Assembly: GCA_008632985.1 (NCBI GenBank)
Contig: QPGO01000287.1
Span: forward strand, 1 to 64,000
Source: Psammoneis japonica
Taxonomy: Eukaryota
Length of the DNA stretch: 64,000 nucleotides
Direction: 5' to 3'
Shown here: positions 4,318 through 48,704 of the stretch, in pieces
How the letters are laid out: every line of letters starts with the position of its first letter
Position numbering within the stretch: position 1 is the stretch's first letter
The notes under the pieces: generated by a model
Databases searched by the model: none
The model's input: only the letters and a program-made list of their open reading frames with translations
What the model was told of the DNA's origin: nothing
Translations under genes and position numbers: made by a program

Positions 4318-4735
4318 TGCCCCATGCATGCACCAGGCGCTGAAAAAGAAGATGTGTTACGACTTTGTCGTTGTGAAAATCATGAGCTGGTTTAGAGCAG
4401 AGAAAATGGGATCGTGCGAGTAGGGAATCTTGCCAATTCCCTGTTCGGCATTGAATCGATCATGCGCTCGCATTGTGGATCGTGCGAATCAAGCCATCAC
4501 GCGCCATGCACGAGTGATGTCATCGCATGGAATCATGCTGCCATCGTGGGCCAGACGACGGGCCAGTGTGCTTCACACGGACGCTCTCTTGGCATCCTTC
4601 TGGAATTGCCCAAGACCTGGAGCCACGCCCTCCTGTGGTCGTGCTTCCCAGGCACGTGTTAACAACACTGCGTTGCCATGCACAAGAGGCTTGTGCACGG
4701 TCTCACTGTGTTGTCCAGTGGCGAGGCATGCTGCA
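4318..4735 (-). repeat. Gypsy-1 3' LTR
   Basis: Aligns to 10246-10677 with one small indel; lies next to the PPT. Confidence 0.9.
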
Positions 4736-4774
4736 CACTCCCCCATGATCAGGGCCGTTAAGTGACAGGATGTC

Positions 4775-7138
4775 TCACTGGTGATGGGGTGCAATCTGCC
4801 GTAGATTGCACGTGTCCATCAGCGCTCCGTTCTGGACACACAACGTGCCGTTGTCATGTGCACAGACAACTCTGGCGGGTCCTGCATGGCTGTCAGAACC
4901 GCATTTAGAGGATTGTTCCTGTTTGATGAGTGCCAATTGCCCTGCGGTGTGTTGACACTCCTTGCGTTTCTGATTTTCATGCTTGTTGTTTGAGTGGGTG
5001 AGCTTCTGCTTTCTGGTTTCCATGTGCTTCCACTTGGCACGATGGGCAACAGACAAAACCGCATCGCGTCCGAAGACCAATTGCACGGGACTTGCGCGCG
5101 TGGTCGTGTGTGCCGCAGCTCTAGTGGCGAAGGCTGCTGCGGAGAGGATGCCACTCCATGGGTCATCTTTGTCCAGTTCCACATCCTGTGCTGAAAAGGA
5201 ACGCACCATGTTGCCAAGTGTCTGGTGCACACGTTCCACTGTGGCATTTGCCTGTGGATTCCGTTTGCTTGTGGGTTTCTTCAAAATCCCACAGTCATTT
5301 TTAATCATCTGGCTAAATTCTGCCATAAATTCTGTCCCACGGTCATAAACCACCTGGGTTGGCCACGGATGCCTGCATGGCCACGTTTGTTCCACGAGGT
5401 TTGCTGCGACGTCTGCGCGTTTCGTGGACACTTCTTTAATCTCAAACCACCATGTTGCTGGGTCAATCATTGTGACTGCCCACAATTGCAAGGTGTCCTT
5501 TCCGCGTCTTTGAATTTTACATGGCCCTGTCACATCCATGCACAGAGTCTCCCATGGAATTATCTCTGCGACCTTTTCTGGTGGCTTCCCACAACGCTGC
5601 GTTCGGCGTTTTGTCTTCTGGCATCGATCGCACTCAACGCACGTAGAATGCACCGTAGACCTCATGCCAGGCCAATGGAAGTGCTGGGCAACAGACATTT
5701 CCGCACGTGTCTCACCTGGATGACACAGTGTCTCGTGGTGCCATTCAGTTAGCGGAACCTGCAATGACTGCGGCACTGCGATTTTGTCCTTATGACAGAT
5801 TAACTGTCGTGATGACCCTCCCCCACGACATGCGCGAATGGAGCAGTCGGACGAGTCCTTGGCTCTTGAGAGTGGGCGCTTGTCCTTTTGTTGTGCTTTT
5901 TGAATGCGCTTGAAGCTAACAGGCAGAGACAGCTCATCTTGCGCGTCTGCATTAAAAGCTTCATGCAAAGGACGACTCGATGGAGTGTCTTTTACATCCG
6001 GATTAGCCTCGAAAGGCAAGCTGGGTGCCAGTCGAAGGCGACTGAGAGCGTCAGCGACTGGGTCATGGGCACCTTTGACACAGCGTAATTCGGGACCGCA
6101 TTCTTCGCATGTCAACTGCCAGCGCATAACGCGCTCGGCATTGAATGCTTTGTGCGTAAGATTTTTATGATCAGTGTGTGTGATCACACGATGACCAAGG
6201 AGAATCGTTCGAAATTCTTTCAACGTCTCCACAATGGCGAGCAATTCTCTCTCCGTTGTTGTGTGATTTAATTGCGCATCATCAAGCTTTCTGCTGTAAA
6301 AGGTGACAGGTTTGTTGTCTTGGGATGTGACTGCTCCCAATTGACATTTAGAGGCATCGGTGTGCATCTCAAAGGGTTCATTGGCACGGGATCCACGGGT
6401 GCACCCGGGAATTGCGGGATGAAAGGGGAAAGGGGCAAATGGGAATGTTGGGAAAGCAAGGGGCTGTTGTTGTGCCTCAAGGGTCCCTTCAGTGAGCCGA
6501 ACACGCACATTTGTCATCTGACCATCATGGGTCCGTCTTGTGGGGGGTGTCAAAATGTTGTGAAGGGACGCGTCTTGAGGATTGGTCGTCACATGACATG
6601 TGTGGCTATGAAGGTCACACAAAGTTGAAAAACGCATGTGCGCGTTTTTTGTGTGTGTCGTTTTCAGATTTATATGATGTCAATGGTCAAACACACAATG
6701 CACAAAATCATTTCTCGAGACCGCGTCTGCTCCACAATTTGACGACCCCCGAAAGGACGGACCTGCGAGGGTCAAATCGGCAACAAGCGTGTTTGGCTGA
6801 CTAAAGGGTCCCTCAAGGTAAAACAACAGCATGTCACTTTTCCACCATTCACATTTGCCCCTTTCCCCTTTCATCCCGCATTTTGCAGATTCCCCTGGTG
6901 CATCCGCGGATCCCGTGTTAAAATCAGGATGTGACAACAAAACATCATCCGACATCACCCGTTTGACGGTTTCGAACGCCTCGTCTTCAACGGACGTCCA
7001 CTCCCACTTAACAGTCTCGCTTGCGAGTCGTGTCAGCAGAGCCAAGACTTCAGAACGTCCAATCCACGTGTCGCGGCAGCAGCTCACCATGCCAATGAAT
7101 GAACGTAGGTCGCGTTTGTTGGTTGGAGTCACGATTCG
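4775..7138 (-). pseudogene. Gypsy-1 pol: RT-RNase H connection, RNase H and integrase, interrupted by MITE A1
   Basis: 'LRSFIGMVSCCRD', 'LLSHPDFN|EPFEMHTDASKCQLGAV', 'HTTTERELLAIVETLKEFR', zinc finger 'HETLCHPG..CDRCQ', 'DRGTEF', 'NPQANATVERVHQTLGNM'. Confidence 0.93.
6385..6917. mobile_element. MITE A1 (533 bp), TTAA-specific, piggyBac-like non-autonomous element
   Basis: Long imperfect TIRs CACGGGATCC..GGATCCCGTG. Right flank TTAA (6918-6921), left flank TTGG (6381-6384). Removing it restores the pol reading 'DFNEPF'. Confidence 0.9.
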
Positions 7139-8537
7139 CTAAATGGCGTCGACTTTATTAGGTGTTGGTCGCATTCCGTCTCTGTTGACCAGATAACCCA
7201 AGTATTCTAATTGGGTTTGACAGAAGTGAGATTTAGTTGCGTTAACTTTTAGTCCTGCTTTCTGGACCCTCAATAAAACTTCTTCAAGTTTGTTGAGGTG
7301 ATCTTCACAGGTGCCTTTTGTCACGACGAGAAGGTCATCTAAGTACGTTCGAACGAACGATAGATCTTCAAATAAGCCTGACATGCGTTCTTGGAAAATG
7401 TCTGGCGAATTACATAATCCCATGGGCAATGCCTGCATCTCATACTTACCCCACGGGAAGATGAGCGTGCAGAGCTTCTTACTATCAGTATCCAATCGTT
7501 TATGATAATAGCCCATATTTAAATCCAGCGATGTAGCCCACATAAAGCCTTCGAGCTTAAGTAGCATATCTTGGATATGAGGAATCGCATAAGGCAATCG
7601 CTTGATCCGTTTATTAAGCTCTCTCAAATCATTAATAAAGCGTACCGTTAAATCTTTCTCCGGTATGATAAATGATGGAGCTGCCCATTGGGATCGGTTA
7701 ACGCGTTTGAGAACACCGATACGTTCTAGGCGTTCTACTTCTTTACGTAGCGTAGCTTCGTACGCACGAGGTACTTTATACGGACGAGCGTGGTATGGTT
7801 CTACACCCTCCTTGAGTTGGATATGGTAGGGTTCTCCCTTCCATTCTCCTAATGTCCCATCAAATAAAAACTCATGGCGTTTCAATAGTGCCAAAAGGTC
7901 GTTTTGTTGAACTATAGAAATTCCTATTGCCTCTCGCGTTATGTCCTTGAGGCAGGCCGGCGCGTGCTTAGCGTCTAAAATACGCGAAATCCGGTCGGTT
8001 TCCGAAGATAAGGCTTCTGGATCTTGAAGATAGAAGGAGGTTTCCACCGTAGCATCTACGTGCCTCATTGGTACTTCTCCATTGACTAATGGCCACTCTA
8101 TCATCTGTTTAGAGAAGACAATATCAATGCCTTGCGTCTCCAGAATGTCACGTCCAATAATCATATCGTACTTGCCCAACTTTCCGTTGTGTACGTGGAC
8201 GGTATGCTTAAGTTCTGCAGTTTCGCATAATTCTGGTAACCGAAATTTAACGGTACAGTCGTTGGACGTACTAAACGAGCCTGCTACCGTAGTCCAGTTT
8301 GTCTCAGCCGTTGAATGGCTTCGCAGACGTTTACAGTATCGACTATCGAGTAGAGTACTGCTGGCGCCACTATCTAGTAGTGCCTCAATAGTTTGAGTCT
8401 TGCCCTTGCCATGTTTAGTATTCATAGCTATAAACAAGATTGGAGTAAGATGAGTCTTTTTAACTCGTTTACGGGATTGGCCTACAACACGTGTACGATG
8501 GTAATTCAGTTGTTCATTTATACATTCATCTAATGTA
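7139..8537 (-). pseudogene. Gypsy-1 pol: aspartic protease and reverse transcriptase (well preserved, TA-rich)
   Basis: 'ALLDSGAS', 'YDMIIGRD', 'SQWAAPSFIIP', 'DLRELNKRI', 'LDLNMGYYH', 'PMGLCNSPDIFQ', 'YLDDLL'. One TAG at 7139-7141. Confidence 0.95.
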
Positions 8538-8541
8538 TTAA

Positions 8542-9075
8542 CACGGGATCCGCGGATGCACCAGGGGAATCTGCAAAATGCGGGATGAAAGGGGAAAGGG
8601 GCAAATGTGAATGGTGGAAAAGTGACATGCTGTTATTTTACCTTGAGGGACCCTTTAGTCAGCCAAACACGCTTGTTGCCGATTTGACCCTCGTGGGTCC
8701 GTCCTTTCGGGGGTCGTTGAATTGTAGAGCAGACGCGGTCTCGAGAAACAATTTCACACATTGTGTGTTTGACCATTGGCGTTGCATAAATCTGAAAACG
8801 ACACACATGAAAAACGCGCACGCACGTTTTTCAACTTTACATGACCTTCATAGACACACACACCATGTGACGATTGATCCTCAAGACGCGTCCCGTCACA
8901 ACATTTTGACACCCCCCCATGGGACGGACCTGTGATGGTCAGATGACAAGTGCGCGTGTTCGGCTCACCAAAGGGACCCTCAAGGCACAACAACAGCCCC
9001 TTGCTTTCCCAACATTCCCATTTGCCCCTTTCCCCTTTCATCCCGCAATTCCCGGGTGCACCCGTGGATCCCGTG
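8542..9075. mobile_element. MITE A2 (534 bp), same family as A1, in opposite orientation
   Basis: Perfect TTAA TSDs at 8538-8541 and 9076-9079. Near reverse complement of 6385-6917. Confidence 0.92.
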
Positions 9076-9107
9076 TTAAAACTACCTGCATCGTGTCGGC
9101 CCCCTTC

Positions 9108-10184
9108 TCAGGCGTCCGAATCTTCGGAATCACTCAAGTTGAGGTCGCGGAAGTGATTGAGCTCCTCCTCGTGGGCCTTGCGCTTTTTCTGAGCATTGGC
9201 AAAGAACTCCTCGACCTTTGATCCGATGAGAGCATCAACATCTTCCTCATTCCGAGGTTTTGTGTCAGGCTTGCCACCTCCGTCGTTGGAATGTCCAGTC
9301 TTGACACGTTTCACGTGGTGCTTGAGCTGACGGCAATCCTCCGTGTGATGTCCACAGCCAGTCCTGTGCAGCATGCACGACTTCTGGGTGTTCCGTTGGG
9401 TCGTGATCAATGACTCAGGATTGTCCGTTCTACGTCCCCGCTTGCGTGGAACCTCAGTGTGTTGGTCCTGGTTGCCTTCGGCAAGCTCGACCTGCTCGAT
9501 GCGCTCACAGAACTGTGCAAATTCGGCGACAGTGTGCGCCAACGGGTCAAAATTCTGTAGCGTCATGAACTTCTGCCATGCGTTCGGCACACCGCACTCG
9601 AACACATCGCACAGTTCGTCATTGGGCAATGGTGCCGGTGTTTCTCCATCCTCCGTCACGGGTGGAAACTGAGAGACACAGCCGTTAATTTCAACAGCCC
9701 TCGTGACGTGGTCATGAGCAGAAACCTCTGCAGGCTTGCACGTGAAGCGCCGCAGATGACGCTTCTGCAGTGGTGCCGCCCCATGTGGGAAGACACTTTC
9801 CTTTAGCTTCGCGATGCATGCTGCGCACGCAGCGTTGGTTTGGGATGCCTGCTTGTCAGCGGCATCATTAAATGACGTCAGAGCATCGCCCTGTAGCAGG
9901 TCACGCACAAGGGCAAATTTTGCTGGCCCGGTCGTGATGTTTTGTCCTTCGTGCACGCGATCCACGTTGCATAGAAAGATCAGGAGTGTCTCGCATGTAG
10001 CCGCAGAAAGGTGCGGAATGCCCATCTCGTGCGTTGGACTGTCTGGATCAGCAGGGTTGTTGCGCAGCTTGAACGTCTGGCACTCGCCCTGCTGCAGCTC
10101 TTTCTTCTCCGGCCGTGCGAACGGAATCGGCAGCTTGATCCGCTTCTTCATGGTCGTTTCAAGATTTGTCGGTCCAACCAACAT
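9108..10184 (-). pseudogene. Gypsy-1 gag
   Basis: Open ORF between the 5' LTR and pol, with a C-terminal 'CMLH..GHHTEDC' knuckle-like motif. Confidence 0.85.
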
Positions 10185-10245
10185 TTCGTAGTTTCGTTTC
10201 TGTAGATTTCGTTGCCTCGCACAACATGCGGGAGCAATGTTGCTG

Positions 10246-10677
10246 TGCCCCATGCATGTGCTGGGCGCTGAAAAAGAAGATGTGTTGCGACTTTGTCGTT
10301 GTGAAAATCATGAGCTAGTTTGGAGCAGAGAAAATGGGATCGTGCAAGTGGGGAATCTTGCCAAATCCCCATTTGTTCGCATTTGGATCGCATTGAATCG
10401 ATCGTGCGTTCGCATTGTGGATCGTGCTAATCAAGCCATCACGCGCCATGCACGAGTGATGTCATCGCATGGAATCACGCTGCCATTGTGGGCCAGACGA
10501 CGGGCTAGTGTGCTTCACACGGACGCTCTCTTAGCATCCTTCTGGAATTGCCCAAGACCTAGAGCCACGCCCTCCTGTGGTCGTGCTTCCCAGGTGCATG
10601 TTAACAACACTGCGTTGCCACGTGCAAGAGGCTTGTGCACGGTCTCGCCGTGTTGTCCAGCAGCGAGGCACACTGCA
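10246..10677 (-). repeat. Gypsy-1 5' LTR
   Basis: Direct repeat of 4318-4735, followed by TSD ATGT. Confidence 0.9.
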
Positions 10678-28091: not shown

Positions 28092-28458
28092 TGCACTATG
28101 CTCGAAGAACGAGTGTAAACGAAAGTAGAATAGTGTACGAAAAGTGGAAATTATAAGATTAAATTTTGCTCTGTGATTTTTGGTTTCTCCGAACGAGTTC
28201 TCAATGGCCTAAAGCTTCTGTACTGTTTCTACAGACAAAAGGCCTTTCGGAGAATATATTCGTGACAACAGATTGTCCGGATACGATTGCTATTGACACG
28301 TAAGATGTCAACATCGTCAATCGATCGTATTTGCAATTCTCGACATCCGATCAACTCTGTGTGATCGTTCTGTCCTTTGTACGCATCCACGACTGTGGTA
28401 CGATTGACATATAAATAATATATAATCATGAATGTGTATATAACAGTCGCATACTGCA
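28092..28458 (-). repeat. Gypsy-2 3' LTR (TA-retaining copy)
   Basis: Gap-free alignment with 32464-32830. Confidence 0.95.
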
Positions 28459-31400
28459 TTCGCCTCCCTAATTGCACATTAGAGTCATTTGTAAGTGGAT
28501 TATTCGACGGACATCGACAGTGTCAATAATGTCTCCACTTTCACTGTATTGTGCCATTAGCAATGACTGTTGTTGTTTTGTATAGGCAATATAGGGCCGT
28601 TCCAATTTCCGAATGTCTTTTGAGAGTGACATTGTTCGTTTCTCACTTAATATGTATATATATAGTATTACGTCGAGTATTCTCATTGACGTTCTTGTTG
28701 ATATGAACACAAGGACTAATTGTCCTGGAGTAAGTGTTTTTCCTGATATCGATTGTACATAGCGTCGTGCCCAGTACTTAATGTACGCTCTTAATTATGG
28801 CGTTCACTTACTTACTTGTGGATTTCATGTAGTTTGGCGGGCTTACTTTATATGCCATATTGCTCTGCTGCACTACCACATTTCATAAGTAATAATAAAC
28901 GATGGTCAAAGATATTATGACCATTTCGTCTTGATAATCAATCCTGAGATGGTTATGAATTCCATTATGGATTTTTTTTTTGTACTTCAACCATCTATCA
29001 GTTGGATTTTAATCGTTATTTGGACGTTTCTTTCTGACATACCGGTGTTATTTTGTCATTCCGAAGGCACTGGTTTCGTGCACTAAGTGGATAAATGTCC
29101 ATTTTTCTTTTCTTTTTCTAGATCTTTGGCACATCTCGTGTGTCGACATGATGTATATTTTAATGTCTTGCCTCGTACATTGTACAATACAACCGTACGG
29201 GTGTTGTGAGATTGTCTTTTGCCAGTGTGAAGTGGATACGTATAATGTACACCAATCTGTCACTGTTTTTTCCTAAATCGTCCTTTAAAAAGGCGATTTT
29301 ATCCTTGTGACATGAGCATTTTTCGATCTCGCTCGCCTCCACGAAAAGTGTTCGTATGATATGTCGCGTCCGACAATTTGGAGGGAATGTCTTTATCCCG
29401 TTTTAACGGTAGGACATTGTCGTAGGATTCAATTTTCTATAGTAAGTCGGCTGATCGCGTCTATCGCGACGATGTTCGCCTTGCCCTCGCTGTATTTTAA
29501 TTCGGGACTGAAGTTTTCTATTGTAAGTCGTCAACGTATGACTTTGTCCGTTGTGTCTTATGATCCGTATATATATAAATCTGTTGGCCAAACAGCATAT
29601 TTCGGAATTTTATAAGTGTTTTCACTATGGACAGAAGTTCTTTTTTCCGTTGTAACGTATAATATTGAAATCCGTGTATGATAACAATATAGTTTTTGAT
29701 TTGATACGCTCCATATTTTCGGAGACTTTTCGTTCCGTACTTGTACTTTTGCCGTTTGACCTTTATTGAGGTGAATTTGGCTAGTGTTGTACAGGAGATC
29801 GTTGAGACTACATGTCTCGATAATAGTAACGTATGACAACGAGATGTCGTAGTGTTCTTTACGTTTTTCTCGTGTTGCGATTGCTTGAATCGCCTCCATT
29901 TTCTTTGTAATCGATTGCATGTCGTTACGTATGGAAGTCTTGATAGTTTATTTCAAGTTAAATAGTGAAGGACTTTTGTTGTTAACCTTCTAAGCGACTG
30001 TTCTAGTCGTTTGAATGCCGTATTAAGCTGTTGCTTGTGCAGGTGATATTTTGAAGTTACTTTTGTCAGGCACAAACGATCACATATAGTCGTTCTGACA
30101 ACTTTAAACCTGTTATGAGTTCACTCAAGTGTTGTATAAAAATATCTGGGGCTCTATAGATTCTCATTGGAAGTCCATAGTGCTCATTTTCTCCCCACGG
30201 CATGATTTTCGTGTGAGCACGACATGTGCTTTTTTTATTTGACTTGGTGGCATTCCATGTTTGAATCAAATAGATTGCATATATGAAACGTTCTTGCTTC
30301 AACAGTATTTCCTGAATATTGGGTAAAGGATGCACCACCTGCATGAACCTTGTACAAGCTTCTGAGTGTCGAATGCGGTCGAACTCGACCTGTTTTCTTT
30401 AGACAATGAGTCTCAGAGCGACTTGTTCAGAGTAATTTCATTCTTAAGACTTCAATCTTTCATAATAGGTCAAACTCCTTTTGATTGGATGCCTCCAAAG
30501 ACTATGATAGGAGAAGGTTCTCACGCGTCGTGGAATCGCGTCAGATTTTCCACGATGAGATCCACTGGTTCTTCCCACACATTCGTCTGAGGAACTTTTC
30601 AAAAAGATTTCAACCTCTTAAGAAGAAGATTGAGTTGGTTGTGTTCATTTGGGTTAGATGCATCGCCGTAGTTGTCACTTGATTAGGATCGATGACGTGA
30701 CAATGTGAGTCGAGGACCATTGGTTCCGTTGTTGACTCCATTCACGGCGTCACATTTTTCAATGTGATCGGTTTTCAGCTTGAAAACATCGGCATCGAAG
30801 AGTGTATGAACATTCTTCATAGGATAATTGCTTCTTCCCATTTGATTTCTTCAATTACCCAGTCCAATGTGATCACAAGACTGGACATTAAGTCGCGTCC
30901 CATGATCACATCACTCGACCTTGAAGAAGATTTCGTGTTGTCGACATGTGCTGTTTGAATGTCAGCAGGTCTTAAATTTGCACAGTGAGAACTGAGTTCG
31001 GTTTCTGCTGTCAGTCGTAAAGAGCTCACCCTTGGTTTCCCAAGTTTTTTTTGGTGGCGGACATTTTGGTTCTCAACTTTCGCACGAATTTGCGCAAAAT
31101 TATGGTTGACGATGTTCCGTTGTCGACAGGAACACGTAGATGCTTTTTTTCTCTCCTTTCCCAAGGAAGCATTCATATAAATGATGACTCCTGGACTGGC
31201 ATGAATTATTTCTGCCTTTTTTCTAGGCTTCCTAACATCCAGTGAAGCAAATAATTCGTGAATGGACCCAAATTGTTCTTCGGATTCACTCTGGATCATC
31301 CGATCAAATTGGCATTTTTCTTCACTGAGGGCATCAGAATCTGTTTCTTTGCCCTTGTGCTCTTTTTCTTTGTTCGAGGAACTCGTTTTGAGCATTTTTT

Positions 31401-32463
31401 GAACCGCCTGATCAACCATGACGTTCAACTCTTTTTTGCGAGCGGCATTTTCGTTATCGCGACGCGACCGCGTGCGATTGCCATTTGAACGGCGCATTTT
31501 TGGGTCTCTTTCAGAGTCACCCTTGCACTCTTTTGCTAGTTCATTTTCGGAATAGCTTTAATCCGTGATGCAGGTGTTCTTTTTTCAAAGATTGGACCTT
31601 TTGTTCACTTTGGATTGTGGTGGTACCACACAGGAAACCATTTTTGGAACCAAAATTGGAACCTTTTTGATTGTGGAATCAACTGCGCTGTCAGAGCCCG
31701 AATTGACATGTTTTTTTTGTCATAGACGTCCTTGCCGACCTCTGGACGACTCAAACCTCAATCAGCTCGTCAAGGGTGTGATCCAGTAGTTCAACATTTT
31801 GGACAGTAGGCTGATGCTGCCATCCTTGCGGTGCGAGTGACAACTGATAAATCAGCGCTCGGTTTCCCGCTAGATTCGACTTAGAATCCATCTGAGAGTC
31901 GCACAGACTCTCCTCGTTGACCTCTTGGGTCTATCAGAGGCTTTCTTGCTGTTGAGCGGCTCTGGTTTCTTCAGGTCGTCTCGAAAATAATTTCCCTGAT
32001 TCTGAAGTGCATTTCCTAGGAGGACATGAGTTATGAGACGCTTGAGGCACTTTCCAACGATTCCCTCTTGCTCCTTGGACTCGAGGATCATCGATTCGGT
32101 CTCAAAAAACTCTCCAATAGTCTCTCCTTGCATGGTAGACGCATTTCTCGGATCTGATCGACTCGGAACTTGCATTCTCTGCAACCATGACTTGGTGTAG
32201 ATTTTTTTGATAATGCGGTGTGCTTGAGAGCCCTTGATCCTTGGGTGCTTGGAATAGACCGTACCAGAGCGAATCCTCTTGTCTGGTAGACGAAAAACAG
32301 CGTTCCATCTTGAGGCACTGCTCGGCTTGAGCTTCTTCCGCTCGGAAATCGATTCCAGCAGAACTGATGCGATTCGTTCCTGTTTGTAGAAGAATTTGCA
32401 AAGGCACATTAGTTAAAATTTTCATTTTCCGTGCTTTTTACCTTCTGTGGTGTGTGTGCACAA

Positions 32464-32830
32464 TGCACCATGCTCGAAGAACGAGTGCAAACGAAAGCAG
32501 AACAGTGTGCGAAAAGTGGAAATTATAAGATTAAATTTTGCTCTGTGATTTTTGGTTTCTCCGAACGAGTTCTCAATGGCCTAAAGCTTCTGCACTGTTT
32601 CTACAGACAAAAGGCCTTTCGGAGAATATATTCGTGACAACAGATTGTCCGGATACGATTGCCATTGACACGTAAGATGTCAACATCGTCAATCGATCGT
32701 ATTTGCAATTCTCGACATCCGATCAACTCTGTGTGATCGTTCTGTCCTTTGTACGCATCCACGACTGTGGTGCGATTGACACACAAATAACATATAATCA
32801 TGAATGTGCACACAACAGTCGCACACTGCA
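32464..32830 (-). repeat. Gypsy-2 5' LTR (TA-converted copy)
   Basis: Gap-free alignment with 28092-28458; 15 differences by manual alignment. Confidence 0.95.
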
Positions 32831-38200: not shown

Positions 38201-38525
38201 TTTGAAAAGCAGAGACACCATTTCAAAAACTCCTTTCCAAAACTCTCACTTTTTTCACTGCCACAAAGTGCAGAGAGCCTCGAGGCTGTTTGCCTCTTGT
38301 TTTTTGGAGTCTGCTGTCTCTCTTCGCCTCAAGACTCACGCAGAACCTACAGCACACAAAATCCTGGTAGGGCAAGAGAGATTTCCCCCCCACACCTCCC
38401 CTCGCATCGTCGTCGTTTCGAAGTTTGCATTCGCGAAAGTCGGTCGAGTTACTGTTGTCTGAGTAGCTCGTACTTCAATCTTACGTCGTACGTACAGTAT
38501 GTACTGTACACTGTCCATTCGTCAT

Positions 38526-38527
<2 letters not shown>

Positions 38528-38557
<30 letters not shown>
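38528..38557. repeat. (GCAC)n microsatellite
   Basis: About 7 tandem gcac units. Confidence 0.9.
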
Positions 38558-38569
38558 CACTACTACAGG

Positions 38570-39507
38570 GTAAAACGAAGCCTTGACGTCATCATTTATC
38601 TCGTCCTTAAATATTTTTTTCGATCTTTTTGACCGAACTTTTCTGCTAGCTCGCTCTCTCGTTTGCGTTGAGAACCAAAAACCACCATGAGATGTGCAAC
38701 GACCGGCCATGCATAGCGCTATAGGTTGGCATTGTCATTAATTCCCACAGCGAACAACAGAATTCAATGTCTATTTAATAATCTAAGTGTCGTTAAAGCT
38801 GTGACAAATCGATGGAACGATGTGAGAATCATTTCAACAAGTCACTCTCGTTCTGGAAGAGCCATGCAAAACCACAAGGAACGACTCAATGCTTCATTCG
38901 CATTGACTGCAATGGTGTTCCAGCGCATGATGAACAATCCGCCCTTATTGCGTAGCAATGAGAATGCTTTCTTTCTCTCCAACTGCATCCGTGTTGCAGT
39001 CGCATGCGCTCCGTCCCCACCGACGAACGAACAGATTCAAGATGTCACGTAGAAACTTTACTGAGTTCAACGCAACCCGAAGCCGAGTGTCGAGTGTCAG
39101 GGTTGCTTGTCTCGAATGTCTCGAAGCAAGCGGTTCGCATCACGCACAAAAACGAAAACGACGCACTATGATACATGAACAGCAAAAGAAGGCAAGTACC
39201 AGGAGCAGTCGTTGCTGTAACGAGGTATCAATGCCTCGGTTTTGACCGTGGCTAACGATGTTTGCGCGCTCTGTCCTTTTCTCTGTTGTGGAACTGAGCA
39301 GAAAGAATGTTCAACAACAAGAAGAACGGCTCGGACCGCGCCACTGGTTCTTGGGTGAAGTTTTCCAGTAGCACTAAATGGCACACTACCAGTACTAGCA
39401 ACAACCGAGAAGAATGTGCAGCATCTTCTGTACCAGACCCTCCAACTTCTTACATGCAAGAACCTCGTACCACCGAAGAAAAGAAGTGGAGGACAGCACA
39501 CACTTAG
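38570..39507 (+). pseudogene. Partial duplicate of the upstream region and first ~60 codons of the LRR gene
   Basis: 38570-39490 aligns with ~39732-40616. ORF 39307-39507 'MFNNKKNGSDR..EPRTTEEKKW' matches the N-terminus of the ORF at 40439, then diverges and stops. Confidence 0.9.
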
Positions 39508-40438
39508 AATCGGTACTAGAGTATCTATATTATTATCCTACTATTGCATCAAATTGGTATTTTATACCGTAGTCGGGCCAAAATGAGCGATTCAATGGCG
39601 AACTCTAGAAGGTTTTGGTGGTGGCGCGAAAGGTGGCGCGAAATGACGCGTGAACAAAAAATATGTAGAAGTAGTACTACGTTGTACGGCCCAAAAAGAA
39701 TAACACGGTGCTTACCGGAGGAAGTAGTACAGTAAAACAAAGCCTTCACGTCATCATTTGTCTCGGCTCTAAATAAAATTTTCGATCTTTTTGACCGAAC
39801 TTTTCTGCTCGCTCTCTCGTTTCGTTTTTTAAAACCACCATGAGATGTGCAACGCCGACCGGCCATGCCATAGCGCTATAGGTTGGCATTGTCATTAATT
39901 CCCACAGCGAACAACAGAATTCAATGTCTATTCAATAATCTAAAGTGTCGTTAAAACTATGACAAATCGATGGAACGATGTGAGAATCATTTCAACAAGT
40001 CACTCTCGTTCTGGAAGAGCCATGCAAAACCACAAGGAACGACTCAATGCTTCATTCGCATTAACTGCAATGGTGTTCCGGCGCATGATGAACTATCCGC
40101 CCTTATTGCGTAGCAATGAGAATGCTTTCTTTCTCTCCAACAGCATCCGTGTTGCAGTCGCATGCGCTCCGTCCCCACCACGAACGAACAGATGTCACGT
40201 AGAAACTTTACTGAGTTCAACGCAACCCGAAGCCGAATGTCAGGGTTACTTGTCTCGAAAGCAAGCGGTTCGCATCACACACAAAAACGAAAACGACGCA
40301 CTATGATACATGAACAGCAAAAGAAGGCAAGTACCAGGAGCAGTCGTTGCTATTACGAGGTAACAATGCCTCGGTTTTGACTATGGCTAACGATGTTTGC
40401 GCTCTGTCCGTTTCTCTGTTTTGGAATGAGCAGAAAGA

Positions 40439-42948
40439 ATGTTCAACAACAAGAAGAACGACTCGGACCGCTCCACTGGTTCTTTGAAGTTTTCCAGTAG
40501 CTTCAAAGGGAACACTACCGGTACTAGGAACAACCATGAAGAATGTGCAGCATCTGTACCAGACCCTCCTACTTCTTCCATGCAAGAACCTCGTACCACC
40601 GAAGAAAAGAAGTGGAAGAAGAGCATAAAGAAGGCGTTTCCCTCGATCACGAGGGAGGCTGCTGCAAGGACGTCTCCTCCACATGGTGGGGAACAGGAAG
40701 CTACCACTGCTAACGTTGCTGAACGTGATGATGAACAGTATGCTGATCCTGAAGCCTTTCGCATGCCTGGAGTAGACCAAGATGTGGAATCCCCGGACGA
40801 TGGTGCTGATCACTCACCCGGAGCGCACGCCGCTCCTGGAACTCATGGTGATGCCAGAAGCCATGGATATTCTGCAGAGGAAGTATCCATGATGCCAGGA
40901 GCTGTCGGGGGCGTTCATCATGGGCAGGACTTTTCGATCAATCTCGTATCGGCCCATTTGGTGGATACAGAAGAGGCGCGCCGGATACAGCAACTCGAAG
41001 AGCAGAACCGCATCTTACAAGAGCGCGAAGAGAACGTTGCGATTGCAAATGTTGTTGGCAAAGGCGAAATCCTCAAGAAGTTCTTCAACCTACGCGATCC
41101 CGAGTTTCGACGCCAACGACTTTTCTGTATTGGCATTCTTGGGCTTGTGGCGGCGGCCATTGCTCTTTCTGTCGTTCTCACCCGGGACGACAACCCTACT
41201 GGACCAGTGCCAGTTTCCACGCCGCCTCCGACTCCAGAGCCCACCACACTACTCCACAAAGAGTTGAGTGAGCTTCTCTCGCAGCTTTCTTTCGACAACG
41301 GGGCTGCGCTTTTCAACCAGTCAACGCCTCAGTACCAGGCAGTCAAGTGGCTCGCAAACAGAAGCAACATTGATGACTACGAACAGATGCAGATCGTCCA
41401 GCGTTATGCTTTGGCTACGCTTTACTTTAGTACCAATGGACAGAACTGGACGAATAACGATCTGTGGTTAGACGACGGTCCTGAATGTGGACGGTGGTGG
41501 CAAGCCAAGGGAGCAATGAATCTTCTTTGTACAGATCAAGGTGAAGTGTCATCCATCGAGCTCGATGACAATGAGTTGAAAGGAACGATACCTCCGGAGC
41601 TTGCGTTTCTTTCGAATTCGATTGAACGAATCGGGTTTTCAGGGAACGCCATGACAGGCGCAATTCCTACAGAGCTTGCGCTACTGACTCTGTTGTCAGA
41701 GTTCATTGTCGATCAGAACAGATTGAGTGGCACCATCCCATCGGAGCTTGGGCTCCTGACAAATTTGTACTTTCTTGGAATGGTGGAGAATGAATTTACA
41801 GGCTCTATTCCAACAGAATTGTTTCTCTTGACGAATCTATGTAAGCGTGATTGCTACGTGTATGATCTTCTTTTGTGCCAATTGTCCTGCTGATGCCTGG
41901 TTGACGTATGTTTGAGCAGCGACACTAAGGCTCGGAAGCGGTCTACAAGGCACAATCTCGGCTGATATAAGCGCCCTTTCCAGATTGAGTAAGTTTCAAC
42001 AGAGGTTATATTGGAGTCGTGAAGGTTACTGTTGAGGGATTGTTCTATTTCTAACTCTACACGACGACTTATCTTCGTTTCTGATCCGACCAGCCAAATT
42101 GGACATGTACGAGAATAAATTCGCTGGAACTATCCCAACCACCATCGGTCTCTTGGCGCGCTTGACTGACCTTTCGATTTGGTCAAATCAACTGTCTGGA
42201 ACGATCCCATCCACCTTGGGTCTTCTGAGCTCTTTAGGTAATAGCAGATGTTTTGAATCCTCTGTCGAGTTACTGTCTGTAAGAATCAGCGACTTAGTGC
42301 TTCTAATTATTCACTTGTTTCTCTTCCTCGAACACAGTTCATCTATTCCTTGGCGGCAATCGTCTGTTTGGGAACATTCCAAGTGAGATTCAGAATTTGG
42401 CAAATTTGAAAAAGCTGTGGTTACGTCATAATTATCTTTCTGGGACAATTCCGTCTACTATCGGCCTCCATTCAAACTTGGGTGAGTTTTCACTGTCGAT
42501 TTTCCGTGGTTTATCGCTTTCGAACATGCTTCTCATAGCTGCATTTTTTGTTTCATCTTGCACAGAGGAGCTCCTTCTCAATGGAAATAACTTTACAAGT
42601 TCTATTCCGAGTGAGCTTGGTGCCCTTTCGAACGTCAAGCTTTTTCTCCTCGGAGCAAACCATCTCAATCGAACAATCCCTTCGGAACTTGGTCTCCTGA
42701 CTAACGCTCAAATGTTTTTCTTGAATCGAAACTCACTCACTGGCCCTATCCCAAACGAAATTGGAGGGCTGACGAATTTATTACATCTTTCTCTCCTCAA
42801 GAACAAGTTGACTGGTACCATTCCACCTGGTGTTTACAACATGACTAGCCTCGAAACTTTGTGGCTGCATGACAACAACCTGACCGGTCCATTCACCTGC
42901 CCCGAGAATGTTGAGAGCTGCAAAATCTCTTGTGAATCCTTGAACTAA
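40439..42948 (+). CDS. Transmembrane leucine-rich-repeat (receptor-like) protein; exons ~40439-41840, 41920-41988, 42094-42237, 42338-42481, 42566-42948
   Basis: TM segment 'LFCIGILGLVAAAIALSVVL', cap 'TPQYQAVKWL..QRYALATLYFSTNG..W', plant-type LRRs 'LxxNxLxGxIPxELG'. Four GT-AG introns keep the frame. Confidence 0.92.
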
Positions 42949-43239
42949 ACTTGCCGTGTTCTCTAGAGCTCGGAAGGATACGAAGAATTGCATGTTTTAT
43001 GCTTGGTGTAACGAGTCTGGTGGGGTGTAGCTGAGCTGTGCGGTGCGACAATTTCTGATTGTACTTCTACCAGAGGTGCGACAGCCTCCGCTTTCGCGCA
43101 GCAAGAAGGGCACTAGCTGCTGTAGATTCTCTTTACAGGATTACGGCAGTTATGTGGAACACGAATCTTTATTCCAAAATCAAATCCATGGCCACTCCGC
43201 CTCAAGAACAGCGTTATAAAATCGTTAACTTTCTCCCAA

Positions 43240-43612
43240 CAATCACGGATTGCAACCATCGATTGCGTGCGGCTTCGCAGCAATCGAAAGATCGCAATGC
43301 GCGCGCTTGCCACGTGTGACAATCGATTGCAATCGCGATCGCGATTGGCCACCGCGCGGAATTCGCGCGCCCCACGCAGGGGCGCCCTCTGCGCAAGAAC
43401 GCATTTTTCGTGAATGTGTGCCATGTTTCGGTCAATTTTTAGTCCCGTGTGCGATGAAAATCCCGATTCACGACTAAATTTTAGACACGAATCGATCGCG
43501 ATCGATCGCGAACACGATTGCGATCTTTGTGACCAGCGCCAGACAAACAATCAGCAGATTGCAATCGTTTCGATCGCGATCCGCAATCGAATTGCAAACA
43601 AGATTGCAGTCG
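43240..43612. repeat. Cluster of short palindromic motifs (ATCGAT, GATTGCAATC, ATCGCGAT)
   Basis: Many copies visible in a CG-rich, TA-poor tract. Confidence 0.6.
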
Positions 43613-43761
43613 AGTTGGTGATTTTACAACGCTGCTCAAGAAGGGCATGAGATTCTTTTTTTTGCACATGACAAGTTTTGCCCGGAACACAAAAGATTTC
43701 TCGATGATTGGATTCTCAACTGCTGCACTGGAATGGGAAGCCAAAAAACGCGTTGCCATTT

Positions 43762-44913
43762 CTATTTTTCGTCAATCAACAAGCACGGTGACTCTGACCC
43801 GCTGGCTTCAATCTGAACTCGTTGTCTTGGACTCCAGGCTCCACATCCCACCAGTTTGGCGACAACTTCTGCGGAAGATTGGAGCTTCCCATTGGCCCTG
43901 CGAATGGGCACTCCGGCTGTGGGGGCCGGACTGCTCGGCTCAGGGTTCGGTTCAGGGGGAGTCGTGCTCGGAGTCGGTGCAGGGGGAGTCGGACTCGGAG
44001 TCGGGCTCGGAGTCGGTGCAGGGGTCGGTTCAGGCAGTGGAGGGAGCGCATCGGCACAATCAGAAAAATTGAGGAAGAGAGAGGCTTGTTCAACCATGGC
44101 AGAAATTGGCCCACGATTGTCTGGGTCACAACCAACTGCCCAAACCACTTCTTTTTCGACGTTGAAGTCGACACACGCCGGGAGTGGGAAATCGTCGGGC
44201 ACTGCCACTCAGCCCCCAAAGTTCGCGATGAAATCTCTTTCTCCCCGTTCGATTTGAAAAGATTCGAGCACGAACTCATGCTCGATTCCATCCAGCGTGA
44301 ACTGGAAAATCATTTCTTCATCAACCTCAGGGCAATCGTTGCATCGGAGGAAAAGGTCGTCAAAGTCTTCTCCAGTCGCACTTTCTCCCACCTTTGTGAT
44401 GACAAGCTCGAGGCCTTCTGATGTGTCCCATGTGACTCGACCCGATTTTGCTTCTTTTGCTCCATCAACGCCATTCCATGTTGCACTGTCAGGATCAATG
44501 TTGGCATCCAATTTGAGTTCGATGTCATCACAATTCTGATGAATCCTCTCCCGGCACGTGACCGTGTCACCACCGTTGGAGATCGTGACATTGTCACCCA
44601 CTCGTTTGGTCTCCCACTCGCTGTCCTTGTCGATCTTGCACCTGAAATGGCGCGCGTCTCGAGGTTCATCACACGCGGCTTCAACCACGTGAAAGTCAAA
44701 GGGAGCACATGATTGTGCGGGACTCGTCACACTCATCCGCAGAGCTCTGTCCCAAAACTGCTCGTCCTCGGCAATCCCATGCTCCTCGTTCAGATTTGCT
44801 CCGATGGTCGAAGCTTTGCCATCATTGCGCAGGCGTCGCAGGAGCTTGCCGCAGACAGGTGCACAGCTGTGGCTTGCAAGAGCAAGCAGGATGAGATTTG
44901 TCAATGCGCCCAT
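43762..44913 (-). pseudogene. Secreted protein with Pro/Thr stalk; one in-frame TGA at 44209-44211; TA-depleted
   Basis: ORFs 44209-44913 and 43762-44208 abut in the same frame. Signal-like N-terminus 'MGALTNLILLALAS', motif 'EQFWDRALRMS', repeat 'PEPTPAPTPSPTPSPTP'. No Tyr in ~380 codons. Confidence 0.75.
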
Positions 44914-45134
44914 TGTGGAGTTCCAACAATGCAGTGCACGTGTGCGGCATGGGAGACATTGCAGACAAGATCAACACTGTGACGACAAAGACTTGCTTGA
45001 AAACAAAATTGTGAGACAAACGCCCGCTCCGCGGTGCAATTTCATCGTTTTTGTCAGTCTTGTAAATTTGAATTTCAGTCTCGTGCACTGTGTGATTTGA
45101 ATCAACACTGCTTGCTCGACATGCACACATTTAA

Positions 45135-45581
45135 CACCGCATCCACGGATTCACCAGGCAACACTCGGGTGTGGCAAAAAGTGTGCATTTGGTCAAAATC
45201 GATTGTCGAGTGCAAATGGCGGCATCTTTAGGGTCCCTTTAGTGAGCCGAGCACGCACATTTCTCATCTGACCGTCACAGGTCATCTTGCGGGGGGTGTC
45301 AAAATGTCGTGCTTCAATGTGTGAATTTTCAATTTCATGTGACCTTGGTGGATGGATGCATTGTGTGACAATTAATTTTCAAGACGCGTCAAAGCACGAC
45401 GTTTTGACACCCCCCATGAGACGGACCCATGATGGTCAAATGAGAAATGTGCGTGTTCGGCTCACTAAAGGGACCCCAAAGACACCACCATTTGCACTCA
45501 ATGATCAATTTTGACCAAATGCACACTTTTTGCCATGCCCGACTTTTGCCAATTTTGCCTGGTAAATCCGTGGATGCGGTG
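45135..45581. mobile_element. MITE B (447 bp), TTAA-specific, related to MITE A
   Basis: TIRs CACCGCATCCACGGATT..AATCCGTGGATGCGGTG extending ~170 bp imperfectly. Flanks TTAA (45131-45134) and TCAA (45582-45585). Shares 'gggtccc..agtgagccga..tcatctgacc..ggggggtgtcaaaatgt' with MITE A. Confidence 0.9.
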
Positions 45582-46019
45582 TCAACACATGAAATCGCCT
45601 TGAACATGGGGAGCGAGAGACAAGTGCATAAGGACAGCTCGTAAATAACGGGATTCTCCAGAACTTTAAACTAATGTCCATTTTTGCTTAAACTTAAATT
45701 CCTTATCATTAAATGTTCAAATAAGAGTACATAACAGCATACATAAGTAGAGCAGGCTAATGCCGGTGTGCGCGCGAGACGACGACTCCCAGAATTCAGT
45801 CACGAATCATGAACGCGCAAACGCGCGAACTGACATCTGCACATCTTCAATCTGCGGCGTGACGAGATTGAAGATTGACGATGAGTGATGAGAAGGCAAT
45901 GGGGCTAGCAACATGACAGCAGTGGAGTGAAGAGTCGTTTTTAGTAGCTTGCTAAAAGTGGACAGAAAGGCTGTGACTTTGAGAGGCGTTGCGGCTGTAG
46001 CCAGGGACAAGACAAAACC

Positions 46020-47549
46020 ATGATCTCCCGACATCTTTTTCTGCGGTCGCGATTTCACGTCTCATCGAAGCTCCTTCTCGAGACGTACAGCCAAGCAACC
46101 ATTGGCGTTGTACGACAATTCTCCCCACCATTACGTATTCCTATTCGACAGATTTCAACAGTATTAAAGTCTCATATTGACCAGGGAGCCCTTCGTGAAG
46201 ATGCTGCTCAAGCAAAAGCAGCACGTTGGCTGAGTCGATTGCAGGATGCAATGGTGGGATACACAAACGAGCCTATTTTAAAGTGGATGGATTTGATGGA
46301 GAAATACGAGCAACAGAAGAAAGATATTGCAGAAAGTGGAGATGATATTGATAAGAAAGTCACAGCTGCATCAAAAGAAGTGGACCAGAAAAAAGCCACC
46401 GACCTAGAACCGCCTGAACCACCCAGCATTCGAATACCTCGCGGCCTTTTCTTGCACGGTCATGTCGGAACGGGCAAAAGCATGCTGATGGATTTGTTCT
46501 TTGCAAACGCCCAAGTTGAGAAAAAGCGCCGCGCTCACTTTCACTCCTTTCTGCAAGACATTCATGCTAGAATACACGTACTGAAACAAAAGGACCTGGC
46601 CACACATGGTCGTGACTTTCACGTTGACACGAGTCAATCGCGCAACCCCATTGTTCGAGTGGCAAAGGAACTAGCCTCTGAGGTTTCCCTATTGTGCTTT
46701 GACGAGTTTCAAGTGACTGACGTGGCCGATGCCTTGATTATGAAGCAGCTTTTTGAGGTACTGTTTGAGAACGGGACCGTTGTTGTGGCGACGTCCAATC
46801 GACCGCCGGGCGATCTCTACGAGGGAGGGCTGAATCGAAGCTATTTTCTTCCCTTTATTGATCTACTAAACAAGCACTGCGTTGTTCATGAAATTGGTTC
46901 AAACACAGACTATCGACGATTAATGTCTCAAGACATGCATGACTATTTCCTTGTCGACAGTGAAGATTTCTCGACCGCTGAGGACGCAATCGATGTCATC
47001 TTTGATCGTCTCTTGGATTGCACCGCGCCCGTATCCATGGACCTGGCTACAGGTTTCGGCCGTTCCCTTAGAGTGTCACAGGCGCATCCCAATACCACGC
47101 TTGTGGGTCGCTTTCAGTTTGACGAACTGTGCAACCGTGAGCTAGGATCGTCCGACTATCGCGCAATTGCAGAACAGTTTTCGATTGTCGTGGTGGAGCG
47201 TATTCCGTTTCTCACACTCAAGGAGCATGATCAGGCACGACGTTTCATTACCCTTGTAGACGAGCTCTACGAAGCCCGGTGCGCCTTGCTTTGCTCAGCA
47301 GTCGCCGATCCAGAACATCTCTTTATCGACGGCGAAATCAAGAGAAAAGCCGACGCAACAGAGGATGGGATGGAAACCAAGGTGGGTGAAATGTTTGGAA
47401 TCGATGTGGCACAGAGCTCTGGACGCACGGTCGGCGAATTGGCTAGCGTCAGAGAGCTCTCTTTTGCGTTTAAAAGGGCCTCAAGTCGACTGACGGAAAT
47501 GTGCTCAAGAAGCTGGTGGGAGAAGGCCACTCATTCAGACGAGTCATAA
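46020..47549 (+). CDS. AFG1: AFG1/LACE1/ZapE-family ATPase, probably mitochondrial
   Basis: 'PRGLFLHGHVGTGKSMLMDLFF', 'HFHSF', 'CFDEFQVTDVADA', 'ATSNRPP..LYEGGLNR', 'ARRFITLVDELYE'. Arg-rich N-terminus. Confidence 0.95.
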   Translation: MISRHLFLRSRFHVSSKLLLETYSQATIGVVRQFSPPLRIPIRQISTVLKSHIDQGALREDAAQAKAARWLSRLQDAMVGYTNEPILKWMDLMEKYEQQKKDIAESGDDIDKKVTAASKEVDQKKATDLEPPEPPSIRIPRGLFLHGHVGTGKSMLMDLFFANAQVEKKRRAHFHSFLQDIHARIHVLKQKDLATHGRDFHVDTSQSRNPIVRVAKELASEVSLLCFDEFQVTDVADALIMKQLFEVLFENGTVVVATSNRPPGDLYEGGLNRSYFLPFIDLLNKHCVVHEIGSNTDYRRLMSQDMHDYFLVDSEDFSTAEDAIDVIFDRLLDCTAPVSMDLATGFGRSLRVSQAHPNTTLVGRFQFDELCNRELGSSDYRAIAEQFSIVVVERIPFLTLKEHDQARRFITLVDELYEARCALLCSAVADPEHLFIDGEIKRKADATEDGMETKVGEMFGIDVAQSSGRTVGELASVRELSFAFKRASSRLTEMCSRSWWEKATHSDES

Positions 47550-47865: not shown

Positions 47866-48704
47866 ATGGTCACTCTGAACGGTAAGAAACGGGTGTTGCC
47901 ACAAGGAGCAAAGGTCTCTCTCCCCAACGATATGGAGCATCGAGATGACTTGACAGTCAGTACCGTTGGAACTGCAGACATGGCGGTAGCGACGCGCCGG
48001 CCCTTGGACGAGATACGATGCGGTGCTTCGGTTGTCGGCAACGTAATCCAGTACGACACAAGTGAAAACGGTAAGTGTTTGTCACGTTTGTCAATGAGTA
48101 TAGGCGTTTTATGTATCGCGGTTGCTTACCCCCGCGTGTTGCCCGTTGCTACCACACAGTCGATTTGAGTGAATGTGAAGTTCAGGACGCGTTGATTTTG
48201 CTTCATTACTTTCTTCGCTCCGTCCCCCCTGCCTATCGCGACGACGCACGAAGAGCTCTTCAGTTCCTGTCGAGTCGCCTTTTGGAGGAATCCCTCAACT
48301 CTGTCTACCGCTTGTCGAGCAAGACTGAAGTCGTACAGCGTGCTCTGACCTTTATTCATGACGTGTTTCAAGTTTGTTTTTGTGATCATGGTGAAGATTG
48401 GTATCACATCAAGAATGCCCTTGTCGTGTTGAAGAATCACTTTGACGGGAATTCTCAGACCGATCTCATTCTTACTACGGACTTGATGAGTCCCATCTCA
48501 GCAGCGGCCGTTGTTTCTCCCCAGAGTTGCAGTGATGAGATGGAATCCACCAAGGACGCCTGTTGCGGCAACGAACCTTTGACTCAAAGAACTAGCATGA
48601 TGTATTCTTCCTTGTACGAAAGAGACGGCTTATTTGGAGCTAATGAGCAATTTTCGGAGCATCGCGATGGCCTTTTGGACAGGCTGCTGAAATTTAAAGA
48701 ATAG
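47866..48704 (+). CDS. Hypothetical protein, 2 exons (47866-48070, 48160-48704)
   Basis: Intron GTAAGT..CACAG joins two ORFs in frame. Normal base composition. Confidence 0.6.

Follow-up and report, generated by a model that had tools for sequence, protein, structure and literature searches.

Loss of TpA and retention of CpG across a host secreted-protein gene lying between two miniature transposable elements in Psammoneis japonica

How a gene for a host-type secreted protein came to lose nearly all of its TpA dinucleotides (TA) and to keep its CpG dinucleotides (CG) is the question raised by positions 43230-45640 of the Psammoneis japonica DNA analysed here (the window, which covers the initial 64 kb of contig C289, QPGO01000287.1, in an assembly of 91 Mb). 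Against expectation from base composition, this island held 13 TA (144.1 expected) and 162 CG (157.3 expected), and the 1299 nt at 43764-45062 held no TA (69.6 expected). The flanking genes had observed/expected TA of 98/190.9 and 100/182.9, and the genes of the window were in general near 0.5 of expectation for TA and near 1 for CG. The preliminary description of a TA-poor, CG-rich island of about 2.4 kb between two normal genes was thus borne out, the neighbours being a leucine-rich repeat (LRR) gene and an AFG1-like gene. Long blocks of the window were at 0.0-0.1 of expectation for TA and 0.1-0.3 for CG, with CA and TG near 2. Genome-wide, the TA-poor, CG-kept state was frequent (75 of 206 TA-poor 400-bp bins, from 18 arbitrary 10-kb stretches). 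The explanation favoured here, to which slightly better than an even chance is given, is that the island is a copy of a host secreted-protein gene mutated on both strands by a TpA-specific A:T>G:C hypermutator, a silent interval having been edited as a unit and active neighbours blocking the editor. On the best reading, the same hypermutator strips the transposons of this genome.

A search of the genome divided the island in three, namely a miniature inverted-repeat transposable element (MITE A), the secreted-protein gene together with its flanks on the 3' and 5' sides, and a second such element (MITE B). The gene, its edited upstream flank and the neighbour that served as internal control were:

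44913-43762, minus strand: edited host secreted-protein gene, 383 codons plus stop, with a signal peptide-like start, a beta-rich body and a Pro-Thr stalk.
44914-45130, minus strand: edited promoter-side DNA with one TA left (45063); the paralogues and a MITE-free contig have TA where the window has TG or CA.
40430-42948, plus strand: multi-exon LRR gene (PF00560, E 3e-4), co-duplicated with the secreted-protein gene and unedited.

The frame at 44913-43762 confirmed what had been noted of it at the outset, a signal-peptide and Pro-Thr-stalk open reading frame with no Tyr and one in-frame TGA. Its N-terminus was hydrophobic (Kyte-Doolittle 11-residue maximum 2.25).

Exactly three copies of the gene were found in a protein search of the genome. 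The gene region was matched on contigs C232 (81%) and C122 (77%), and both paralogues lacked the two MITEs and kept TA and Tyr. Both were linked to the same LRR gene in a cassette of about 5-6 kb, which is therefore present three times in the genome. The C232 paralogue had 50 TA across the corresponding stretch, and the paralogous cassettes were TA-normal despite lying inside edited blocks. The LRR half of the cassette was 89% identical, compared with 81% for the secreted-gene half. In the C122 copy (222400-223500) a long, partly masked poly-proline repeat took the place of the stalk.

Sites were polarised where both paralogues agreed on TA (or CG), with the LRR region 39751-43208 as the control. 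None of 16 polarised TA was kept in the gene (9 became CA, 6 TG and 1 AA), while the LRR region retained 69 of its 79 (p = 1e-11). This contrast, in a gene whose host paralogues are linked to an LRR gene, upheld the earlier proposal that editing can reach coding DNA outside transposable elements (TEs). Pairwise with the C232 paralogue, 49 TA sites yielded 1 kept, 17 TG, 22 CA, 1 CG, 6 other changes and 2 gaps, and 65 CG sites yielded 50 kept and 4 TG or CA. Changes to CA and to TG did not differ in number (25:17, p = 0.28); both DNA strands had been changed, which excludes an RNA-edited retrocopy.

Polarised CG became CA at 1 of 26 sites on the window branch, and TG or CA at 3 of 26 on the C232 branch. 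C>T was not raised in the gene (6/238, compared with 23/1024 in the LRR gene; p = 0.81), and some CG had been gained in the island through A>G. These counts speak for a TA clock much faster than CpG decay, and not for independence from methylation. The process had been called separable from CpG deamination, which held as a difference in rate and extent (CG kept, TA lost). A>G outside TpA was raised as well (17/231), both relative to the LRR gene (18/1006, p = 4e-5) and relative to the paralogue branch (3/206, p = 0.005). Several of these changes were tandem changes beside TA sites, the pattern expected of a clustered or processive enzyme, and some may be hidden two-step changes.

That the island is an artefact of codon bias, of an RNA-edited retrocopy or of assembly error was the least probable of the explanations weighed. 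Coding DNA of this genome is mildly TA-poor (observed/expected about 0.5), as an artefact of codon bias would have it; against this, the paralogue has its 50 TA in the same stretch, both strands were changed, the non-coding flanks and synteny were kept, and read contigs were identical to the window.

In an exhaustive protein search, 8 distant relatives of the secreted protein were found (E 4e-14 to 7e-4), unnamed or 'hypothetical' and most with signal-peptide-like starts. Relative to 8 Tyr in the C232 paralogue, the window copy had none; those 8 had become 5 Cys, 2 His and 1 Phe. At three columns with Cys in the window, the relatives had Tyr in 7/8, 6/8 and 4/4 aligned rows, which excludes the objection that homologues are equally Tyr-free. 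The check proposed on the His and Cys positions accordingly returned Tyr in both paralogues and in the outgroup proteins, and the opposite outcome, homologues as Tyr-free and TA-poor as the window copy, was looked for; paralogues and relatives kept Tyr. No match to the secreted protein was found in Pfam, in a word-indexed protein search (proteins of length 189-602 only), or in Atlas, metagenome contigs or solved-structure sequences. The predicted fold of the paralogue was all-beta, with a mean predicted local distance difference test score (pLDDT) of 70 (a first model reached pLDDT 32 only), and Foldseek matched nothing to the pLDDT-70 model at E <= 0.001 (best Z 4.5). Locus L002 1705-2739 and proteins P0002-P0009 together describe a secreted, all-beta family with an internally repeated unit carrying conserved Tyr, Cys and Trp, for which neither a Pfam family nor a clear match in fold was found.

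The coding damage of the window copy had more than one source. Two lesions were located exactly:

44209-44211, minus strand: premature TGA at codon 235, from TGC by a C>A change; the two paralogues and three outgroup proteins have Cys here.
43834-43836, minus strand: lost original stop, TAG to TGG; the C232 copy stops here, and the window frame gains 24 codons, up to the TAG at 43762-43764.

As the TGA arose by C>A, and as no sense codon can become a stop through TA>TG/CA, this lesion was not made by editing. A second conserved Cys had become Arg. The TAG at 43762-43764 was the sole TA remaining in the gene and stands in a slow-to-edit context, TYTA/TARA, which held 316 of 419 TA survivors in TA-poor bins, compared with 1173 of 4521 in normal bins; retention of this stop by selection was rejected in favour of that context. 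Judged from its sequence, the window copy is most likely dead or dying. Of the suggestion that editing could pseudogenise or diversify surface proteins, the second half found no support here, as the copy looks dead; its nonsense codon did not come from editing.

The two elements and the edges of the edited domain were:

43209-43634, no strand assigned: MITE A, hAT-type, non-autonomous, with an 8-bp target duplication (43201-43208 and 43635-43642) and short terminal inverted repeats.
45131-45585, no strand assigned: MITE B, TTAA-ended and piggyBac-like, with inverted repeats, 217 bases upstream of the ATG of the secreted-protein gene and edited in place.
43150-43208, no strand assigned: left fading edge, with about 3 probable TA>TG/CA changes (near 43153, 43175 and 43181) amid kept TA, read by eye from the alignment with both paralogues.
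45586-45606, no strand assigned: right edge, about 20 bases past MITE B, from the junction letters of the MITE-free contig and from TA positions; TA resumes at 45629.

The edited domain thus spans approximately 43150-45605, with edges at most about 60 bases from the outer MITE ends. From each MITE, editing reached at least 750 bases inward and only about 20-60 outward.

A palindrome cluster and MITE B had been described as bracketing the gene. Both were present, with the refinement that the cluster is MITE A itself. All 10 other full-length copies of MITE A were TA-poor and CG-rich (2-9 TA, 14-54 CG), and the TA-poverty of the cluster is therefore a family trait; the 8-bp duplication was exact in 7 of these copies, had one mismatch in 2 and was lacking in 1. 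Compared with the majority base across 8 further copies, the window MITE A had differences at 4 of 426 positions. Its outer inverted repeat kept 3 of 3 TA, and 2 of 3 were edited in the gene-facing one. The site of MITE A was empty in the C232 paralogue, where about 170 bases are triplicated in tandem (48130-48660) at the corresponding place. Two TA- and CG-poor elements of 3.2 kb that share the ends of MITE A are candidate decayed parents (L078, C381:17053-20317; L079, C182:119173-122446); 3 frames of one of them had no Pfam match. Among 27 frames (24 of 83 near 8 copies, and 3 from the longer element), no second clear case of a host gene edited beside MITE A was found.

Relative to its closest copy, MITE B had 14 of 18 TA changed to TG or CA and 18 of 19 CG kept. 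Of the other near-full-length copies of MITE B, 9 of 11 kept 14-22 TA (two share a flank). Saturation was greater in the gene than in MITE B (1 of 41 scorable TA kept, compared with 4 of 18; p = 0.027), with no significant difference in strand bias between them (p = 0.12). Full-length copies ended in TTAA or in a TA-edited form of it, and the right end of the window MITE B and the empty site in the reads both read TCAA, not TTAA. As piggyBac integrates overwhelmingly at TTAA (PMC7351741), the TCAA empty site may reflect either non-canonical targeting or a change of separate origin.

An independent read assembly (run X1) contained two contigs that showed 0 differences from the edited gene, at depths of 34 and 30.3, roughly half of the 58.7 in the AFG1-like gene, contig depth being a rough measure only. 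One X1 contig joined 45122 to 45606 without MITE B and continued to 46276 with 5 differences, along a stretch present once in the assembly. The 31 letters of this MITE-free junction held 7 TA (both edges counted), all of which are TG or CA in the window (5 certain, 2 requiring a 1-base gap). An allele without the MITE had been proposed as a check, and this contig lacks MITE B and has its junction TA intact. The damage therefore lies in cis, with probably a single homologue affected; the simplest reading is that the locus is heterozygous and was edited in cis with the MITE. On the side of the AFG1-like gene, no second haplotype contig was found in the assembly (1 match).

That duplication triggered the mutation, or that the gene was carried in as transposon cargo, was considered highly improbable. 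Repeat-induced point mutation (RIP), the model for the former, consists of C>T changes that create TA and stop codons, and it needs duplicated DNA. The cassette of LRR and secreted-protein genes does occur three times in the genome, as both versions would have it; yet its more similar LRR half (89%, compared with 81%) was unedited, and so were both paralogues. The cargo version, raised in the preliminary description, was not sustained: the MITEs come from two families, each sits in a target site of its own, and the gene remains colinear with the LRR gene across the empty site of MITE A.

A stronger contender, though still unlikely, is that one or both MITEs recruited the editor and that it spread from them, the gene being damaged incidentally where two leak zones overlap, as in leakage of RIP. 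The position of the domain edges, about 60 bases or less from the outer MITE ends, accords with it, as do the three MITE-lacking comparisons (two paralogues and one read junction), all unedited. However, 9 of the 11 other MITE B copies kept their TA, the gene was more saturated than MITE B, the outer end of MITE A was unedited and the leak was strongly one-sided; spreading from a MITE, as first suggested, is for the first two of these reasons no more than possible. If the MITEs act through silencing of the gene, this explanation overlaps with the favoured one.

Improbable, in turn, is that the gene died and was edited first and that the MITEs landed later in selection-free DNA and mark the edges only. 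The greater saturation of the gene would follow from such an order of events, and the low divergence of MITE A (4/426), the nonsense codon and the loss of a second conserved Cys are all compatible with it. Against it, MITE B, too, underwent editing where it lies (14 of 18 TA), and its TTAA/TA-rich target site was unedited on the MITE-free contig. The inside-out gradient in MITE A also argues against it, with the qualification that its right-end changes were common to two other copies and were maybe inherited.

The TA kept by most other MITE B copies, the more saturated gene, the unedited outer end of MITE A and the lopsided reach of editing fit the favoured explanation, that a silent interval was edited as a unit. 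A transcriptionally silent interval of 2.4 kb would have been left by the independent insertion of two MITEs (217 bases upstream of the ATG in one case, behind the stop in the other), by the nonsense mutation, or by both. The editor, for which a DNA adenine deaminase guided by chromatin is the likeliest candidate, would then have been recruited to the whole interval, and the active genes on both sides would have stopped it. With an editor far faster than CpG decay, a young domain looks CpG-intact.

Several points weigh against this explanation. Silence, chromatin guidance and the deaminase nature of the editor were all inferred. Of 9 PF00383 matches, all looked by eye like ordinary deaminases, two of them TadA/ADAT2-like (C38, C26). 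Relaxed selection on the window copy was not significant (pN/pS without TA sites 0.68, compared with 0.27 on the C232 branch, p = 0.19; 0.49 on the C122 branch). The reads revealed the unedited state at the MITE B junction only, not across the gene body, and run X1 is possibly the assembly's own sample. A TA-poor flank was present at 10 of 11 MITE A copies, compared with 40 of 72 arbitrary pairs (p = 0.043), an enrichment that also suits spreading from the MITEs; part of it is explained by one copy (L066) lying in a Ty3-type element and several others lying in CG-poor blocks. As a separate observation on deaminases, a gene with two domains labelled by eye as deoxycytidine monophosphate deaminase-like occurred on two contigs (L123/L126 on C41, L124/L129 on C317).

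On the right, the first gene beyond the domain was:

45948-47549, plus strand: AFG1-like ATPase frame, first ATG at 46020 (PF03969, E 1.8e-78), unedited and single-copy in the assembly.

On the left, the 5' region of the LRR gene was partly duplicated in tandem (38516-39493 and 39731-40619), and a new TAA at 42946-42948 ends the window LRR gene five codons before the C232 copy. Within its last exon, 3 of the 7 TA>TG/CA changes of the 3.4-kb LRR region fell within 40 bases (42831, 42837 and 42868), possibly a small editing burst.

Other elements of the window were edited unevenly. The Ty3-type element at 4318-10677 (recorded together with L066) was broken by two MITE-B-like elements; its protease and reverse transcriptase section (6963-8544, 116 TA) was unedited, and its gag and integrase parts were edited. 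One copy of that section, on contig C68, was mostly unedited (88 TA shared), and a second copy was edited (92 changed, 20 kept). Flanking parts of the Ty3 copies differed in CA versus TG at 29-40 sites, and the copies were therefore edited independently; the AT-richer protease and reverse transcriptase section was apparently edited last. A second long terminal repeat element (28092-32763) had a TA gradient, with observed/expected of about 0.6-1.0 in its AT-rich left part and about 0.3 in the right. Copies of MITE B (L083, L085, L086, L095 and that of the window) often lay at borders between edited and unedited DNA, which the need for a TTAA target may explain. A role of MITE B as a barrier to editing was dropped: copies were few, the TTAA target biases landing, and the unedited Ty3 section between the two MITE-B-like elements of the window had likewise escaped editing in a copy lacking them.

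More tentatively than the explanation of the island itself, and with somewhat less than an even chance, it is proposed that the diatom TpA mutator reads silent chromatin, not repeats or foreign DNA, and that any host allele silenced by the insertion of a small transposon is recoded permanently in cis on one homologue. If so, an epigenetic state would have been written into sequence, with Tyr recoded to Cys or His, Ile to Val, and TAA and TAG stops removed. As such change never makes stops, it could give recoded, extended surface proteins, not truncated ones. The locus itself, through its internal controls, establishes three properties of a mutator that has scarcely been described: duplication is unneeded, a whole host gene can be saturated, and the edges track gene boundaries within tens of bases. 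A defence that deletes stops and tyrosines has consequences for gene death and for protein change opposite to those of RIP, and the long spurious frames that it leaves will mislead gene prediction in such genomes. With the edited and unedited states apparently in one strain, the locus is suited to direct tests of editor recruitment.

The signature of TpA loss is already known from viral inserts in Bigelowiella (10.64898/2026.01.13.699255). What the island adds is the saturation of an entire host gene lying between two MITEs, checked against paralogues, outgroups and reads and independent of duplication, together with the signal outside TpA and the loss of a stop. In the literature searched, largely without subscription papers, no diatom description of TpA loss was found, and the Bigelowiella preprint was the only match. 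That preprint (Mettrop et al., bioRxiv 10.64898/2026.01.13.699255) describes TpA-specific hypermutation of integrated DNA of NCLDV (nucleocytoplasmic large DNA viruses) and virophages in Bigelowiella natans; the NCLDV target was single-copy and transcriptionally silent, the rate was about 1000x baseline, and an ADAT2-like enzyme was proposed and is unproven. Among the TpA-depleted coding sequences of that work were 24 Pfam families of likely host origin, which may include similar cases.

Compared with Bigelowiella, the island shares TpA>TpG/CpA on DNA (15 of 16 polarised TA to TG or CA), regional action and independence from duplication. It differs in occurring in a stramenopile (diatom-like) and not in Rhizaria, and in affecting a host gene, with two intact LRR-linked paralogues and 8 relatives, in place of a viral or foreign target, the adjoining MITEs being mobile DNA. 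Its polarity before and after editing comes from paralogues and outgroups, and it is saturated, not partial. Its limits lie within tens of bases of MITEs, it apparently affects a single homologue, and it is not TpA-only, with a weaker excess of A>G outside TpA.

RIP leaks into single-copy secreted-protein genes of Leptosphaeria maculans (PMC3105345), and there as here an anti-repeat mutator overruns adjoining host secreted-protein genes. Unlike RIP, the process at the island removes TA, Tyr codons and TAA and TAG stops and did not raise C>T, and it spared the more similar duplicate half (LRR) and both paralogues. Diatom TEs carry DNMT5-dependent CG methylation (PMC9998398). Like CpG decay of methylated TEs, the change ends in TG and CA, and CpG decay accompanies TA loss in older blocks of the window; unlike CpG decay, which starts from CG, it left the CG of the island in place. 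Deamination of the ADAR/TadA type is A>G with a preference for 5' T/U and clustered changes, and ADAR acts on RNA. APOBEC editing of retroelements is a further related system, and the Mettrop preprint discusses both. Unlike ADAR, which would be expected to mark one strand of a retrocopy, the process at the island changed both strands of resident DNA.

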